Positions 3,314-62,961 of a stretch of DNA of 64,000 nt are shown piece by piece. The first letter of the stretch is position 1; each line of letters begins with the position of its first letter. The DNA comes from Escherichia phage AV109. Location: the sequence record OR352939.1; one strand, written 5' to 3'. The position numbers and the translations under genes are program-made. The notes beneath the pieces were generated by a model that was not told the origin of the DNA, searched no databases, and saw only the letters and a list, made by a program, of their open reading frames with translations.

Positions 3314-3946
3314 TCACAGTACGTTAGTTACAAGGGTAATGATTTCTTTGGACACATTAGGGAAGTCAATGTAAGTATATTTACCACCGATCTTAATCTT
3401 AACATCATTTTCAAGAGAAGTAAACAGCTTTGATTCAGTTTCTGACATGTTGTATGCAAAGATTCTAAGAGAACCATCTCGACGAATTTCGATCTGACGA
3501 ATACCTAGAACTCGTTTTGCAAATCGAACTTCCAAGTTACTACGGTTTTCACCGATTTCTTTAACTTCAACTTTATCTTTAATATTTTCAAAAACAAAGT
3601 TTGCTAGTTCATGCATTTCAGGAGTAACTCCACGTGCTTTTCTGGTGTTACGTTTCTGAAGAAGTTCTGGAGCATTTTCTTGAGCAAATAGGTCTGCAGC
3701 TTTTTGGATAATATCCATTGCTTCGCCTGTTGCTATAAGTCCATCACCAGATTTTTCGACTAAACCTTTCTTAATCAATACACCAATGTTAGAGTTAACA
3801 ACCGATGCATTGTATTCTGCCTCCAGAGCTTCACGGACATTGGCAGCAGTGGTGAAGTTGTTCTTAATGATATAAACCATTATTGCAGCAGTTTTTTCAT
3901 TCAGAGCGTTTTCAGAAGCTTTGATGATGTAAGTAACTTTAGACAT
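3314..3946 (-). CDS. motA: Middle transcription activator MotA
   Basis: 210 aa; N-terminus matches T4 MotA (MSKVTYIIKAS..LNEKTA, VVNSNIGVLIKKGLVEKSGDGLI, AQENAPELL.KR.TRKAR). Confidence 0.9.
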   Translation of the reverse strand: MSKVTYIIKASENALNEKTAAIMVYIIKNNFTTAANVREALEAEYNASVVNSNIGVLIKKGLVEKSGDGLIATGEAMDIIQKAADLFAQENAPELLQKRNTRKARGVTPEMHELANFVFENIKDKVEVKEIGENRSNLEVRFAKRVLGIRQIEIRRDGSLRIFAYNMSETESKLFTSLENDVKIKIGGKYTYIDFPNVSKEIITLVTNVL

Positions 3947-4131: not shown

Positions 4132-5457
4132 TCAAAGTGCCTCCAAGTCTTTAGTGTACTCTGTCACAACATCAGTAGACTTCCAATACTCATTTTCTTC
4201 TTTCTTAGCTTTAGCTTCTTCTGCTAGTTTACGTGCTTCATCGGAAGTGATATGGAAGATGTTAAGACCTACCAGTTTATCGACATGTTCTTTATACATT
4301 TCGATTTGTGCGAGCTCTTCAGTCAAAGCTTTACGAGTCTTGCCCTGAATCACAATTTCGCCGTTGATAACTTTTTTGATGAAGTGTGCCTTAGCAAAAG
4401 CCAGTTTAAATGCTTTTTCAGATTCAAGGATTTTGTTGTCAATACGTTTCTGAACGTAAGTCTTACGGACTTCAACAAAATCTTTGATTAAGTCCACTAC
4501 GTTATCGTAGACAGCTAATTTACCCTTTTCATTAATCACTGTGATGTTTTGTGAACGACGTTCGATGAGACTAAAATCTTTCATGATTTTTTCATGACGT
4601 AGCTCTTCATCATCAGGAAGCGAGTACTCTTTACGGAACTTCACCTTAAACCCAAAGCCGTGTTCACCGCAATCATCTTCCCATGAGATTAGACCTTTGT
4701 CTTCCAACGGGTCAAGAACCTTACTCACATACGTTTCACGGTCGAATTTATATGGGATTTCAGTTATCTGCATTTGAGTGCGAGATGTGAACTTATATGT
4801 TCCGTGAATCTCATAACGCCCATCAACTTCATGTACTTCACCACGGAATTCCGGGAATTCAACTTTTGGCTTAGTGACATTTTTACCTTGAAGAGCTTGT
4901 AATACAGCCTTTTTGACTGATTTAAAACTATGAGGCAGAATATTTGTTGCGTAACCGGTTGCAATACCAGAGACACCATTCAAAAGAACTGTCGGAATAA
5001 TAGGAAGATAGAATTTTGGTGGAATGTGTTCTTTATCTTCATGAGCTGGAGCATATTCAGTATCTTTATATACGTTATAGAAATTTTTACTTACACGAGC
5101 AAAAATATAACGAGATGCTGCAGCTTTTTGGACTGTTCGAGAACCAAAGTTGCCTTGACCATCTAACAGTGGATAGTTGTTGTTCCATGTGTTAGCCATC
5201 AATGCACCTGCATCTTGTGCAGAAGATTCACCATGGTGATAACCTAAATCGGCAACACCACCCGCAATTGACGCAAGTTTATGAAATTTTTCTTTATTAC
5301 CACGAGCCAAATCTAACGCACGATGGACCACAAAACGTTGAACCGGCTTAAATCCATCAATCATGTTTGGGATTGCACGGTTTTCAACGGTGTACATCGC
5401 ATATGCTAAGGCTTCGTTATCAATAATACTTTTTAGATTACGAGAATTCAATTGCAT
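4132..5457 (-). CDS. 52: DNA topoisomerase II medium subunit gp52 (GyrA-like)
   Basis: 441 aa; near-identical to recalled T4 gp52 (MQLN.R.LKSIIDNEALAYAMYTVENRAIPNMIDGFKPVQRF, DGQGNFGSRTVQKAAASRYIFARV). Confidence 0.93.
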   Translation of the reverse strand: MQLNSRNLKSIIDNEALAYAMYTVENRAIPNMIDGFKPVQRFVVHRALDLARGNKEKFHKLASIAGGVADLGYHHGESSAQDAGALMANTWNNNYPLLDGQGNFGSRTVQKAAASRYIFARVSKNFYNVYKDTEYAPAHEDKEHIPPKFYLPIIPTVLLNGVSGIATGYATNILPHSFKSVKKAVLQALQGKNVTKPKVEFPEFRGEVHEVDGRYEIHGTYKFTSRTQMQITEIPYKFDRETYVSKVLDPLEDKGLISWEDDCGEHGFGFKVKFRKEYSLPDDEELRHEKIMKDFSLIERRSQNITVINEKGKLAVYDNVVDLIKDFVEVRKTYVQKRIDNKILESEKAFKLAFAKAHFIKKVINGEIVIQGKTRKALTEELAQIEMYKEHVDKLVGLNIFHITSDEARKLAEEAKAKKEENEYWKSTDVVTEYTKDLEAL

Positions 5458-24708: not shown

Positions 24709-24738
24709 ATCTTAACACAGTTTTTAGTGGTTGTAAAC
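24709..24738 (-). promoter_or_regulatory. Putative early promoter (GTTTAC -35)
   Basis: gtaaac 24733-24738; -10 TAAGAT-like. Confidence 0.35.
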
Positions 24739-28935: not shown

Positions 28936-29304
28936 TTAATTAAATTTGTTTAAACGTTCAATACACTGGACGTAGTTATTCGCGATTTGTTTCTGGGTAG
29001 GCTCTTTACCAGTTGTTTCAACATAGCGAATGAATGCGATTTCAGTAGCCTGTAAGCAATGTTCTTTAACGCGCTGTTCTTTTGACATAGCTACAGTATC
29101 AGAATCACGATAACGTTGAGCATGGGCATCAGCTTGAATCATTCGATTACCTACAGTAACCGGGTCTTCCACTTCAACTTTAGGTTGGTCGTACTGTTTA
29201 ACATTCGGATTGTAAATCAATTGGCCGACGTTATTAGGGATAAAGCCATGGGCACCACATCCGGTTAATCCAAATACCATTGCTAAAGCGATTAATTTTT
29301 TCAT
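28936..29304 (-). CDS. Putative lipoprotein
   Basis: 122 aa; signal peptide with lipobox (MKKLIALAMVFGLTGC). Confidence 0.5.
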   Translation of the reverse strand: MKKLIALAMVFGLTGCGAHGFIPNNVGQLIYNPNVKQYDQPKVEVEDPVTVGNRMIQADAHAQRYRDSDTVAMSKEQRVKEHCLQATEIAFIRYVETTGKEPTQKQIANNYVQCIERLNKFN

Positions 29305-29332
29305 TTCAATTTCCTCTGTAGTTGATAGAAAG

Positions 29333-29362
29333 ATAGTAACACAGTATGTGGTGCTTGTAAAC
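29333..29362 (-). promoter_or_regulatory. Putative early promoter
   Basis: gtaaac 29357-29362; TACTAT -10 with 18-nt spacer. Confidence 0.4.
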
Positions 29363-29375
29363 AGTTATTTTAAAA

Positions 29376-29564
29376 TTATCGAAAATCTGCTTCGAAAACT
29401 TTCTCGTCATTAACAAATGCTTTAACTAATGCTTTGTTCACTTCAGCAAGTTGTACCGTAACCCACTCGATTTCTTCGCGATCACCTGATAACATGATAT
29501 CTTTAGTGAACATCTCACCGCTTTTAAACCAACCGATAAAAGTAACTTTAGTTAATTTGCTCAT
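29376..29564 (-). CDS. dmd: Dmd antitoxin (discriminator of mRNA degradation)
   Basis: Start at internal Met (MSKLTKVTFIGWFK); matches recalled T4 Dmd (V.F.GWFK...MFTK.I, AEVNKALVKAF); about 62 aa. Confidence 0.65.
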   Translation of the reverse strand: MSKLTKVTFIGWFKSGEMFTKDIMLSGDREEIEWVTVQLAEVNKALVKAFVNDEKVFEADFR

Positions 29565-29878
29565 ATTTCCTCGCAAAATGCCCATTCAGCGTGATAAACT
29601 GTAGCGCCTTTAGTATCATTCATTTGAACTACATCTACCGGAGAAATTACTCGATAGAGACGTGGTTCACCTCCATAAGAGCGTGCTGCTCGTCCTGCAT
29701 AAATCTTTGCTAAACCGATATCTTCAGTAAAGAATACACGATCCAAGTTTTTCTTACGTCCAGTTTCAGACAGAACTCCTGTTTCTTCAGGAGGACAAAG
29801 CATGTTTTCGATGTTAGCTGAACTACTTGAACCGTGATAAAAAATCTTAAATTCTGCTTTACAATCGATGGTTTTCAT
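29561..29878 (-). CDS. Hypothetical protein with YHGS motif (possible ADP-ribosyltransferase/Tpt1-like fold)
   Basis: 105 aa; KIFYHGSSS followed by RVFFTEDIGLAKIYAGR; start preceded by GGAG RBS and an early promoter. Confidence 0.3.
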   Translation of the reverse strand: MKTIDCKAEFKIFYHGSSSSANIENMLCPPEETGVLSETGRKKNLDRVFFTEDIGLAKIYAGRAARSYGGEPRLYRVISPVDVVQMNDTKGATVYHAEWAFCEEI

Positions 29879-29903
29879 TTTGTTCTCCAGTAGTTGATAG
29901 GTC

Positions 29904-29933
29904 TATAATAACACAACTACTGGAGAAGTAAAC
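29904..29933 (-). promoter_or_regulatory. T4 early-type promoter (GTTTAC-N17-TATTAT)
   Basis: tataat 29904-29909, gtaaac 29928-29933. Confidence 0.5.
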
Positions 29934-30308
29934 TTAAAAACGTAATTTAGATATATCTGCGTTGATTTCGTTTTGGTTTGCGTCGTATGCAATTAAACGA
30001 ACCGCTTTAGATGGGTCATTCAATGCATAGAAATGATGGAACATTGCTCGAACGATATCACCATTTACGAGTTCTACCTGGATAGGAGAACCTTTTTCGA
30101 GTTGGAAATGTTCATAAGCTTTGATGGTTCGTAGATAATCAAGTTTTTGATTTCCGGCTCCAACTATTTGTACGATACGTTTGCCCATGTTTTCCATACG
30201 AGATACAATAGTTTTAGGAGCAAGAATAACGTAGGTTGCCAGCGGAGAAACTACTTCAACAGTTGTGTTTTCGGTGATTGCAGTAAAAATTGCTTGAGAC
30301 ATATTCAT
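29934..30308 (-). CDS. Hypothetical protein
   Basis: 124-aa ORF between gene 41 and dmd. Confidence 0.45.
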   Translation of the reverse strand: MNMSQAIFTAITENTTVEVVSPLATYVILAPKTIVSRMENMGKRIVQIVGAGNQKLDYLRTIKAYEHFQLEKGSPIQVELVNGDIVRAMFHHFYALNDPSKAVRLIAYDANQNEINADISKLRF

Positions 30309-30374
30309 AATGTTTTCCTCTTGGTTGGTGTAAGTACATCATATCATGCCTAGAGGAAGATGTAAACCCCGAAA

Positions 30375-30390
30375 GGAGACCGAAGTCTCC
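30375..30390 (-). terminator. Hairpin after gene 41 (GGAGAC-UUCG-GUCUCC); U-tract on plus strand side too
   Basis: Inverted repeat with cgaa loop; plus-strand TTTTTATT follows, minus-strand UUUCGGGGUUU follows. Confidence 0.4.
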
Positions 30391-30396
30391 TTTTTA

Positions 30397-31839
30397 TTAA
30401 AATTTTAACTCGTTGGCTAAGCTATCTAGGTCAGCACGTGTTGCTTTGGCTTTACCTACGCGTTCCGTACGATTCACCTCTGCCTGACGCATCTGAGCAC
30501 CTGCGTTTTCATTTACTGTGTTAGGTGTGTTCATGCCTTCTTGCTCAATCTCAACCCATTTCTGATTGCCTTTACGTACACCCATCAGGAATTTATTCCA
30601 CTTATTCTTATCACCATATCGTGATTTGATTTGTTTGATAAGTTGTTGTTCAGCTTGTGCAAGTTCTTCGGTTTCAATTACGGCCAACATGAAATCTGCC
30701 GTTGCTGGTAAACCTGCTGATTCTGCAATATCACTCATGTTCATGTCTGAAGCATCCCATGCTGCACGTCCTACTTGAGCTGCAGTCCATAGAACTGTTT
30801 CAGATTCTACTGCTAATGCACGAAGTTCTTCTGCGATAGCTTTAACTAATGTGTAGCTATTTTCAGTGTAAACTCTGATACGACAAGACCCACAAATACC
30901 TAAGTAATCAACCATGATTACAGATGGCACAAAGTTCTTCTTGAGTTTCAATTCATTAAGCAATGCACGGAATGTATTAGCATTAGCTCCGCCAGTAGGA
31001 TACTGTTTAACTACTAAACGTCCTAATGTGGATTTTGAACGCCATTTTTCCATCTTGGCTTTATATTCAGCATAAGATACGTTACCATCATCAATATCAT
31101 CGAGCGATACGTCAAGCATGTTTGCATCTATACGCTTAGCACAAACTTCTTCAGCCATTTCCATAGAAATATAAAGAACATTATGACCTGTTTGAAGATA
31201 ATCTGCAGCAAGTGAACAAAGGCCTAAAGATTTACCAACGTTAACACCGGCCATTAAAACATTCAGTGTACCGGTTTCAGCACCACCTTTAGTGATTTTA
31301 TTCAAAATGTTTAATTTGAACGGGACCTTACGTGCTTTGTTCAGATAAGAAAGCCAGCGTGCTTCATAGTCTTCCATCCAGTCATGTCCAACATAACTAT
31401 CGAACGAAATTGAAAGTGCTTGACGCATAATATCAGGAATAGCTCCTACGTCAGGCATTTTCTTGTTACGTTGTTCTGGAGGTAGTTCAGCATTAGACTG
31501 AATCTCAATGATTTTGGATGTAGCATTATACATCGCTTTTTGCTGGACATATTTCTCAGTTTCTTTAACCAACCATTCATGGTCTTCAGGAGTATCAGCC
31601 AATTTTTCAATTAGGTCCGAAGTTCCTTTATATTCGGCTTCAGTTAAAGAACTGTTATCTAAAGCCACCTTTAATGCATTGATAGATGGCATTGCATTAT
31701 ATTCGTTAACGTGGCTCTTTATAATTTTAAAGACATTTTTTGCCGGTCCACGCTCAAAATACTCAGAATCCATATAAGGCCAGACCTTAGAAAAATAAGC
31801 CTGGTCATATACTAGATGAGACAAAATAATTTCTACCAC
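30397..31839 (-). CDS. 41: Replicative DNA helicase gp41 (DnaB-like)
   Basis: 480 aa; Walker A MAGVNVGKS; size as T4 gp41 (475 aa). Confidence 0.9.
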   Translation of the reverse strand: MVEIILSHLVYDQAYFSKVWPYMDSEYFERGPAKNVFKIIKSHVNEYNAMPSINALKVALDNSSLTEAEYKGTSDLIEKLADTPEDHEWLVKETEKYVQQKAMYNATSKIIEIQSNAELPPEQRNKKMPDVGAIPDIMRQALSISFDSYVGHDWMEDYEARWLSYLNKARKVPFKLNILNKITKGGAETGTLNVLMAGVNVGKSLGLCSLAADYLQTGHNVLYISMEMAEEVCAKRIDANMLDVSLDDIDDGNVSYAEYKAKMEKWRSKSTLGRLVVKQYPTGGANANTFRALLNELKLKKNFVPSVIMVDYLGICGSCRIRVYTENSYTLVKAIAEELRALAVESETVLWTAAQVGRAAWDASDMNMSDIAESAGLPATADFMLAVIETEELAQAEQQLIKQIKSRYGDKNKWNKFLMGVRKGNQKWVEIEQEGMNTPNTVNENAGAQMRQAEVNRTERVGKAKATRADLDSLANELKF

Positions 31840-51071: not shown

Positions 51072-51102
51072 GATTATAACACGCCTTTAATGAAGCGTAA
51101 AC
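51072..51102 (-). promoter_or_regulatory. Putative early promoter for the homing endonuclease gene
   Basis: Minus strand GTTTAC (plus gtaaac 51097-51102) with TATAAT about 19 nt downstream. Confidence 0.35.
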
Positions 51103-58904: not shown

Positions 58905-59005
58905 TTAATTCATTTATTGAAGGTTCATCATAACATGTTTCTTCGTCGTTGTAAACTGTTTCGACGTCTGGCTCGACCGTCTCCCATCGAGCCGAATACC
59001 ACGGT

Positions 59006-62377: not shown

Positions 62378-62905
62378 TTATGCGTGAACCGTCTTTAAAC
62401 GTTCTTCAAATTTCCGAAGAGTACTAATACGTTCTGCTTTCTGTTTTGTATAGTTTGCAATACGTTCTGAAGTGAGAGCGTATCGTTCGTTTACTGATTC
62501 TTTCATGAAGTCAGGGATTTCACGAGAAGCTTTAATTTCATCAAACTTATCGAGTACTGCCTGGTCTTCAGCGATTAAATTTTCGTACATCTCGATATCT
62601 TTCTTGATAAACTCGATATCTTCCTGGGTTACTTTGGATAAACGAGATGCTTTATCCTTTTTGTACTGCTCGTTAGTTTCACGAGACCAGAATAATGTAC
62701 GTTTTTTGTTAGTGTTTTTGTAGACTTCCACAATTCCAACTGAATCGATGATAACAATCCAATTCCAGCGAGATTTGAAAATCTGACCTCCGTCCACGGT
62801 AATCTCGTTACCATAAGCAATGTCATTAAAGAACTTACTTTGTGCTTCAGATTTAAATTTACCGTCGTTATAATTTACCAGGTTGAAAATATCTTTAGCG
62901 TTCAT
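62378..62905 (-). CDS. Hypothetical protein
   Basis: 175-aa ORF; GGAGGT RBS. Confidence 0.45.
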   Translation of the reverse strand: MNAKDIFNLVNYNDGKFKSEAQSKFFNDIAYGNEITVDGGQIFKSRWNWIVIIDSVGIVEVYKNTNKKRTLFWSRETNEQYKKDKASRLSKVTQEDIEFIKKDIEMYENLIAEDQAVLDKFDEIKASREIPDFMKESVNERYALTSERIANYTKQKAERISTLRKFEERLKTVHA

Positions 62906-62931
62906 GTTTTACCTCCAGTAGTTGATAGGTC

Positions 62932-62961
62932 TATAATAACATAACCATAGACCTTGTAAAC
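62932..62961 (-). promoter_or_regulatory. T4 early-type promoter (GTTTAC-N17-TATTAT)
   Basis: tataat 62932-62937 and gtaaac 62956-62961; GATAGGTCTATAATAAC...ATAGACC module. Confidence 0.5.

Follow-up and report, generated by a model that had tools for sequence, protein, structure and literature searches.

A predicted Arr-related mini-ADP-ribosyltransferase, encoded beside dmd in Escherichia phage AV109, that probably acts early and alone in T4-like phages

What is the function of a 105-residue protein encoded between gene 41 and dmd, two genes that stand side by side in phage T4? The question arises from a stretch of 64,000 nucleotides of Escherichia phage AV109 (sequence record OR352939.1; the whole stretch is called the window below), in which a small open reading frame (ORF) lies just upstream of the gene for Dmd, the antitoxin acting on RnlA and LsoA. 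A first-pass annotation, which used the sequence alone, had pointed out the motif FYHGS in its product and proposed an ADP-ribosyltransferase (ART) fold of the Tpt1 or PARP type, with a possible role in anti-defence or RNA modification. The ORF and its sequence are as described there; the program-made translation runs MKTIDCKAEFKIFYHGSSSS...RVFFTEDIGLAKIYAGRAARSYGG...WAFCEEI and includes FYHGS. We consider it likely that the gene encodes an autonomous, immediate-early mono-ADP-ribosyltransferase dependent on nicotinamide adenine dinucleotide (NAD+), with a target conserved among gamma-proteobacteria and a role in host takeover or counter-defence. Catalytic activity, timing of expression, target and biological role are the parts of this reading that we infer.

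The prediction of an ART and the place of the gene beside dmd are already known from the literature (Iyer et al., 2022; PMC9503650) and from some GenBank and RefSeq records annotated as 'ADP-ribosyl transferase'. The present analysis adds the family's homology to Arr, its separation from both Arr and Tpt1 proper, a connection to polyvalent proteins, a promoter-like site and a hairpin, strong conservation, and evidence against a general toxin-antitoxin (TA) partnership with Dmd.

The 105-residue ORF is a genuine gene whose motif is under selection, not a chance reading frame. Its product matches phrog_2110, a PHROG of no assigned function, from end to end (3e-60), and tblastn located the gene in 609 phage records, mostly at 60-100% identity; 215 of these are from phages of Escherichia, 116 of Klebsiella, 68 of Acinetobacter and 62 of Aeromonas, and Enterobacter, Cronobacter, Vibrio, Citrobacter and others are represented as well. 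A HMMER search with a T4-like profile recovered 221 clusters at 50% identity among 1.84 billion protein representatives. In the 104 near-full-length members of the family, H15 and G16 are invariant, residue 17 is always Ser or Thr, and F49, T51, A57, Y60, G69 and G70 are each kept in at least 96%; position 49 is Phe in 101 members and Tyr in three, and Y60 is present in 103. A broad alignment of 40 diverse members taken from the HMMER search leaves H15, G16, E38, F49, T51, A57, Y60, G69 and G70 invariant, with P29, P30, R41, K43 and N44 conserved to at least 90%. Among 32 T4-like sequences, 25 positions are invariant, including H15, G16, E38, G40, R41, K43, N44, F49, T51, Y60, R63, G69, G70 and E103.

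This degree of conservation surpasses that of a core gene and of a neighbour in the comparisons made. Against Edwardsiella phage PEi20 the ART is 79% identical and the replicative helicase gp41 64%, and against a Dhakavirus the ART is 90% identical and Dmd 66%, which argues for a target that would be conserved across hosts. A further contrast is offered by AcrF11, an anti-CRISPR that is likewise a mini-ART (PDB 6KYF). Anti-CRISPRs are patchy and fast-evolving, whereas the phage ART remains 60-90% identical across many host genera; this speaks for a universal target and not for one specific defence system.

Structure prediction suggests that the protein adopts the split beta-sheet ART fold. An AlphaFold2 model on the T4-like alignment reached a mean local confidence (pLDDT) of 83.9 and a predicted template-modelling score (pTM) of 0.76. 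Foldseek ranked Arr first among PDB structures (E 0.018), and in BFVD the orthologues came first, followed by a phage protein under the name 'Ms Rifampin ADP-ribosyl transferase' (E 1.5e-7) and by ART-PolyVal proteins. The strand-1 NAD-binding motif H-G-[ST] is present as H15-G16-S17, and the strand-2 aromatic motif as F49-F-T51, with Phe instead of Tyr as the first aromatic and Y60 as the second. The spacing of 11 residues between F49 and Y60 is the same as that of Y54 and Y65 in diphtheria toxin and of Y896 and Y907 in PARP1. The donor loop reads E38-x-G-R41-K-K43-N44, and its E38 is the sole family-wide acidic residue. In the C-terminal half of the family no universal acidic residue was found, positions 82, 84, 88, 93 and 98 being partly acidic. 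The sequences leave two possibilities for the third catalytic residue, which may be a clade-specific Glu or may be dispensable in a chemistry that needs none. Such acid-free chemistry fits ARTs whose acceptor is a phosphate or an activated hydroxyl.

Evidence on ancestry emerged only once the HMMER search of the 1.84 billion representatives had broadened the family. The profile of the broad alignment matches the Mycobacterium smegmatis Arr chains (2HW2/9IAF) with an E-value of 0.0022 and Arr-2 with 0.11, and hhalign pairs the same alignment with one of 22 Arr proteins at 94.5% probability (E 8e-8, 74 columns). Taken singly, 21 of the 40 aligned members match Pfam Arr-ms (PF12120; best E 1.3e-7), as do 28 of 55 members in another family set, some of them above the gathering score; distant members reach 27-29 bits, where the gathering score is 25. 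Arr (PF12120; PDB 2HW2, 9IAF, 9IBA), the nearest relative by sequence, is likewise a very small single-domain ART, and the two have in common a first strand of the form [FY]-Y-H-G-[ST], an E-x-G-R element, a second strand [VI]-[YF]-x-[ST] and an Ala-rich helix thereafter (corresponding residues in Table 1). A preprint on Arr inhibitors treats the Arr loop that contains E40-A-G-R43 as the equivalent of the donor loop in human ARTs. Altogether, these profile matches point to common ancestry of the phage family with Arr. The earlier proposal of a Tpt1- or PARP-type protein therefore stands with respect to the ART fold, which both the model and Foldseek support, but not with respect to the closest kin, which is Arr, and the protein is not a Tpt1. 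The profile search and structure prediction suggested at that stage were both carried out and gave an Arr-linked family and a confident model with Arr as the top PDB match; similarity to the ART fold was found, and none of the homologues recovered has a known function of another kind. The suggested role in anti-defence or RNA modification may be correct, with circumstantial support.

Homology is not to be mistaken for orthology, and the phage family is best described, on its profile scores, as a predicted sister family of Arr. True Arr orthology was rejected on three grounds: scores far under the equivalog cut-off, the absence of the C-terminal third, and the lack of an equivalent of D84. Relatives obtain 25-26 bits on the NCBIfam model rifampin_ARR (NF033144), which has a cut-off of 130, and the AV109 protein does not match it. 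The hhalign alignment covers only residues 12-89 of Arr-2 and ends at Arr residue 89, so that the C-terminal 45-60 or so residues of Arr, its last third including the region after D84, have no counterpart in the phage family. Accordingly, the phage protein has 105 residues and Arr 143-150; the Arr triad is H-Y-D and the phage protein reads H-F-?. Arr resides in bacterial chromosomes and integrons, whereas the phage ART is found in lytic phages and in polyvalent phage proteins, and rifampin, the substrate of Arr, is not an expected one for the phage ART. The label 'rifampin ADP-ribosyl transferase' in some phage records is an over-annotation.

Membership in Tpt1 was rejected too. Tpt1 is a protein of about 180 residues with two lobes, an RNA-binding N-lobe and an NAD+ lobe, and a catalytic R-H-R-R tetrad. 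The phage protein equals the NAD+ lobe only and lacks the N-terminal RNA-binding lobe; because this lobe bears most of the tetrad, the phage ART is not a true Tpt1. A Pfam scan likewise gave no sequence-level match to Tpt1/KptA (PDB 9LD3, 7KW9). The T4 proteins Alt, ModA and ModB range from about 200 to 680 residues. Like the present protein they are ARTs of T4-like phages, and they are made early or injected and serve host takeover (PMC5512222; PMC9503650); they belong to the R-S-E clade (PMC5512222), whereas the mini-ART is of the H-G-S/aromatic kind and is absent from T4.

The regulatory sequences around the gene are consistent with early expression. A promoter-like site of the T4 early type immediately follows the ORF124 stop codon, with a -35 element (G)TTTACT at 29932-29927 and an extended -10 element TGTTATTAT whose hexamer occupies 29910-29905. 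For comparison, 55 distinct IMG/VR loci with the ART were examined; 21 of them have a looser form of the motif in the 130 nt before the ART (background 0.04 per 160 nt), and it occurs in 14 of the 17 Tevenvirinae-type loci in which the ART follows gene 41. The strict pattern GTTTAC-N15-19-TGNTANNAT occurs seven times in the window, where 0.08 sites were expected, at 1487-1516, 3396-3425, 24709-24738, 29333-29362, 30338-30367, 51073-51102 and 58927-58956. Two of the seven lie upstream of small genes neighbouring the ART, the site at 30338-30367 being the early promoter-like site of ORF124 itself. Because all seven are on the minus strand, most of the window appears to be an early, leftward-transcribed region.

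A hairpin is predicted to overlap this promoter-like site. Its 5' arm (29927-29914) falls in the promoter spacer and its 3' arm (29896-29883) in the 5' untranslated region (5'-UTR), where it holds the Shine-Dalgarno sequence GGAG (29888-29885); the fold has an energy of -21.5 kcal/mol (z = -4.8), and none of 200 shuffles was as good. In phage HX01 (NC_018855), the 5' arm has a G in place of an A, and the pair is retained as G-U. From this arrangement it may be supposed that RNA reading through from gene 41 or ORF124 hides the ribosome-binding site of the ART gene, and that RNA from the gene's own promoter, which would lack the 5' arm, does not. This logic is drawn from known T4 cases.

About 28 identical bases, GTTATTATAGACCTATCAACTACTGGAG, occur at 29883-29912 and again at 62911-62940 on the minus strand, spanning the -10 element, the 5'-UTR and the Shine-Dalgarno sequence. 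The second copy, 33 kb from the ART copy, precedes a 175-residue ORF (62378-62905); both copies have a GTTTAC -35 element upstream, with spacers that differ. A diverged copy, TATCTTTCTATCAACTAC, at 29318-29335 precedes the imm.1/DUF5481 gene. These shared promoter and 5'-UTR sites resemble the mobile 'promoter-early stem-loop' cassettes that reportedly exist in T4-type phages.

Relatives of the protein offer another view of its function. Among 151 representative relatives, 91 are shorter than 150 residues and thus solo proteins, and 55 have at least 190 residues. The long ones carry ART-PolyVal (8), NUDIX (3), DUF7178 (3) and, once, a 2H phosphoesterase/Acb1-like domain, and further partners are the lambda-type portal, tape-measure, LPD23, CHAP, GNAT, ddrB-ParB and Toprim. 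The AV109 ART is the solo version, and the homologous domains are embedded in a polyvalent-protein architecture. Polyvalent proteins have been argued to be packaged, injected with the DNA and to act on the host at entry (Iyer et al., 2017; PMC5512222), and the solo ART of T4-like phages probably does the job of the polyvalent domain as an expressed early protein. The 2H and NUDIX domains are of the enzyme types that act on ADP-ribose cyclic phosphate and ADP-ribose, and their presence may be a clue to what the reaction yields. Two metagenomic relatives illustrate such arrangements: in P0166 (954 residues) the Arr-like domain lies between a lambda-type portal and a 2H phosphoesterase/Acb1-like domain, and in P0162 (1955 residues) between ART-PolyVal and a NUDIX domain.

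On these grounds we propose the following mechanism. The gene's own T4-type early promoter would drive immediate-early transcription, and on read-through transcripts the hairpin would mask the ribosome-binding site of the gene. In the enzyme, H15-G16-S17 on strand 1 and the aromatic pair F49/Y60 would hold the nicotinamide-ribose of NAD+, and the donor loop P29-P30...E38-x-G-R41-K-K-N44 the ADP part; nicotinamide would then depart and an acceptor capture the ADP-ribosyl oxocarbenium. The enzyme would act alone, as a host-takeover or counter-defence effector, on a target conserved across gamma-proteobacterial hosts, and might thereby do what homologous domains do when other phages inject them in polyvalent proteins. 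Whether this acceptor would be a nucleic acid or small molecule, or else a protein side chain, we regard as roughly evenly balanced. What inclines us to a non-protein acceptor is that the nearest characterised relatives modify the hydroxyl of rifampin and the 2'-phosphate of RNA, and that the family has no common catalytic Glu or Asp.

Several observations weigh against this proposal. The AV109 protein alone matches nothing in Pfam (E up to 1), NCBIfam, PADLOC or, by phmmer, the PDB sequences, and the connection to Arr is transitive, via the wider family. The narrow T4-like alignment gives 55% probability against Arr in hhalign; its profile found nothing meaningful among PDB sequences, only a chance match to complement factor I. 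The model is weakest at loop 37-42 (pLDDT below 50), which carries the E38/R41 donor loop. With regard to catalysis, the Tyr of the H-Y-x triad is replaced by Phe, the family alignments contain no conserved equivalent of the catalytic D84 of Arr, and E103, part of an A-F-x-E motif close to the C terminus, is kept in all 32 T4-like sequences but not across the wider family, which usually ends in ...A-K-V-[VI]-x-K in this region. The promoter and the hairpin are sequence matches only, and the promoter motif is absent at 34 of the 55 loci. T4 prospers without the gene, which is hence not essential to the T4-type life cycle, and a literature search retrieved no experimental study of the gene or the family.

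All three alternatives that we weighed share the ART fold with our proposal and differ from it in acceptor and role. The position of the gene invites one of them, in which the ART is the toxin of a phage type II TA pair and is neutralised by binding of Dmd, in addition to the action of Dmd on RnlA and LsoA (Iyer, Burroughs, Anantharaman and Aravind, 2022, Viruses 14:1977; PMC9503650). That paper describes the ART beside Dmd in Escherichia, Shigella and Salmonella phages, predicts a TA system, and also reports Dmd beside a Mod-like ART in some Klebsiella phages; its 'p0068-like' family, counted there among the commonest viral ARTs and assigned to the H-Y-[EDQ] clade, is, judged by position, host range and the description given, almost certainly the one studied here. 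The two genes are indeed adjacent, as had been noted for the window at the outset, and co-oriented in the window, in HX01 and in RB69, and the adjacency recurs in Dhakavirus-type phages. In the window the ART stop codon TGA (29563-29561) shares bases with the ATG of dmd (29564-29562) in an ATGA overlap, and the 4-nt overlap is annotated likewise in HX01 and RB69; however, an ATGA overlap of the ART with whichever gene follows is the rule in these loci. Scored within 3 kb, Dmd accompanies the ART in only 10 of the 55 loci, always immediately downstream and only where the ART shares at least 86% identity with the query, and is absent from the other 45. Dmd is the downstream gene only in Mosigvirus and Dhakavirus, two of the ten genera sampled, and in the other eight a different gene takes this place: spackle in Tegunavirus and Kanagawavirus (Pfam T4_Spackle 2.8e-16, with the PHROG spackle), phrog_7619 in Slopekvirus and Pseudotevenvirus, and others elsewhere. 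The slot after the ART is filled by different small early genes in each lineage. Host ranges differ as well: tblastn finds Dmd in 800 phage records, mostly from Escherichia, Shigella, Yersinia and Salmonella phages and including T4 and its relatives, which retain Dmd without the ART, and the ten host groups given for Dmd do not include Klebsiella, Acinetobacter or Aeromonas, whose phages carry the ART. Moreover, the toxin gene would precede the antitoxin gene, opposite to the order usual in type II pairs, and Dmd is much less conserved than the ART. We therefore reject a general ART-Dmd TA module as a property of the family, given its presence in 10 of 55 loci and two of ten genera, and think it quite improbable that the ART is a toxin held in check by Dmd; where the published reading is toxin and antitoxin, the present data tie the family to Arr and the Dmd pairing to a few genera. 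The simplest account of the adjacency is shared synteny, both genes lying just 3' of gene 41 in the Tevenvirinae, and not an obligate partnership. In Mosigvirus and Dhakavirus the two genes may have a lineage-specific link, for instance joint action against RNA-directed defences. Since flanking genes vary among the genera sampled, no shared neighbour points to a substrate, the domain fusions being the sole hint by association, and this same variation argues for an ART that works autonomously. In Yersinia phage TG1 (locus 1818-2108) and Edwardsiella phage PEi20 (locus 1815-2168), spackle overlaps the ART stop codon.

The other two alternatives concern the acceptor. A Tpt1/KptA-like enzyme might act on nucleic-acid phosphates, by removing 2'-phosphates or ADP-ribosylating 5' or 3' ends, and might work with phage RNA repair and Dmd against anticodon nucleases and mRNA endoribonuclease toxins. 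Such an activity would suit a family without a common catalytic acid, as in the phosphate-attacking H-H-h ARTs, and a gene that adjoins dmd, the targets of whose product are metal-independent RNases. The invariant basic loop G-R41-K-K43-N could bind phosphate, but its counterpart in the alignment is the donor loop by which Arr binds NAD, and it may bind NAD+ rather than a substrate. The fusions to 2H (one) and NUDIX (three) would process the ADP-ribose cyclic-phosphate product of Tpt1 (pathway in PMC9503650), yet they are a minority among many unrelated partners; since, furthermore, Pfam PTS_2-RNA is not matched and sequence homology indicates Arr and not Tpt1, we hold this possibility to be unlikely. 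Still less probable, in our estimate, is an Arr-type modifier of small molecules, or a non-catalytic binder of NAD+ or ADP-ribose derivatives, that inactivates or sequesters an antibiotic directed at RNA polymerase or a host immune signal. Arr is the nearest relative by sequence, the annotation 'rifampin ADP-ribosyl transferase' has been applied to some phage records, the Arr inhibitor preprint names rifamycins as the sole small molecules known to serve as ART substrates, which places small molecules within the reach of the clade, and a pure binder could likewise do without a universal catalytic acid. Against it stand the missing C-terminal part of Arr beyond residue 89 and the scores of the relatives so far beneath the rifampin_ARR cut-off. 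In addition, rifamycins would exert no obvious selection on phages of enterics, Acinetobacter and Aeromonas, and the invariant residues of the nicotinamide site suggest turnover of NAD+ and not binding of an ADP-ribose derivative.

The surroundings of the gene fit a Mosigvirus, to which the window phage belongs. Bases 29000-30400 match Escherichia phages AV114 and AV115 at 100% identity and many RB69-like phages at about 99%, and the gene order is uvsX, 40, 41, ORF124, the ART ORF, dmd, 61.4, imm.1, imm and sp (coordinates of the locus in Table 1). ORF124 and the ART gene fill the space between gene 41 and dmd; in T4, dmd directly follows gene 41, and neither this gene order nor a tblastn search of T4 15-26 kb revealed an ART homologue, in agreement with the earlier remark that T4 has no counterpart here. 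ORF124 is present in just the two closest Mosigvirus-type loci among the 55 and looks like a recent insertion. The RB69 orthologue RB69ORF040c (NP_861730) is annotated as 'hypothetical protein'. Two RefSeq names in HX01 seem wrong: a 70-residue homologue of gp61.4 (locus coordinates 4508-4720) is labelled 'DNA polymerase', and the homologue of the imm.1/DUF5481 membrane protein (locus coordinates 4781-5149; window 28936-29304; Pfam DUF5481 3.6e-09) 'iduronate sulfatase'.

Table 1. Features of the ART locus in the window and residues of the ART that correspond to Arr.
Feature	Location	Strand	Basis
Mini-ART coding sequence, 105 residues, ATG start; orthologue of RB69ORF040c; phrog_2110	29561..29878	minus	ORF and PHROG match
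dmd (discriminator of mRNA degradation; RnlA/LsoA antitoxin), downstream neighbour	29376..29564	minus	Pfam Dmd 7e-21, PHROG Dmd 5.5e-33
ORF124, 124 residues, upstream neighbour; phrog_10668 = RB69ORF041c; function not assigned	29934..30308	minus	ORF list, PHROG
Gene 41, upstream of ORF124	30397-31839	minus	
T4-type early promoter-like site of the ART gene, GTTTACT-N13-TGTTATTAT	29905..29932	minus	Consensus scan
Predicted RNA hairpin, 14-bp stem	29883..29927	minus	RNA fold
H15-G16-S17, aligned with Arr H-G-T (H19 in M. smegmatis Arr)	beta-strand 1		hhalign/profile alignment
E38-x-G-R41, aligned with M. smegmatis Arr E40-A-G-R43	donor-loop region		hhalign/profile alignment
V48-F49-x-T51, aligned with Arr I-Y49-I-T	beta-strand 2		Alignment (F49 with Arr Y49/Y52)

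Alt, ModA and ModB of T4 are textbook examples of host takeover by ADP-ribosylation, and the present gene suggests that a further ART, of another clade, is present in most other T4-like phages. That this ART would have an important and universal target is indicated by three pointers, namely conservation exceeding that of the helicase, an early promoter of its own, and relatives in injected polyvalent proteins. A bolder version of our proposal, which we put forward as speculation with the odds clearly against it, is that the gene encodes an immediate-early enzyme of the Arr/Tpt1 type and hence a fourth ADP-ribosylation activity of T4-like phages, whose acceptor would be RNA or DNA ends, tRNA, a small-molecule immune signal or another non-protein molecule, and that together with the co-translated Dmd it forms a two-part shield against RNA-directed host defences. 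If true, classical genetics would have missed this fourth activity because T4 itself does not have the gene. RB69, which carries it as ORF040c, is a tractable model. The identity of the target would add a mechanism of host takeover or counter-defence, and would settle whether enzymes of the Arr type have substrates other than rifamycins.

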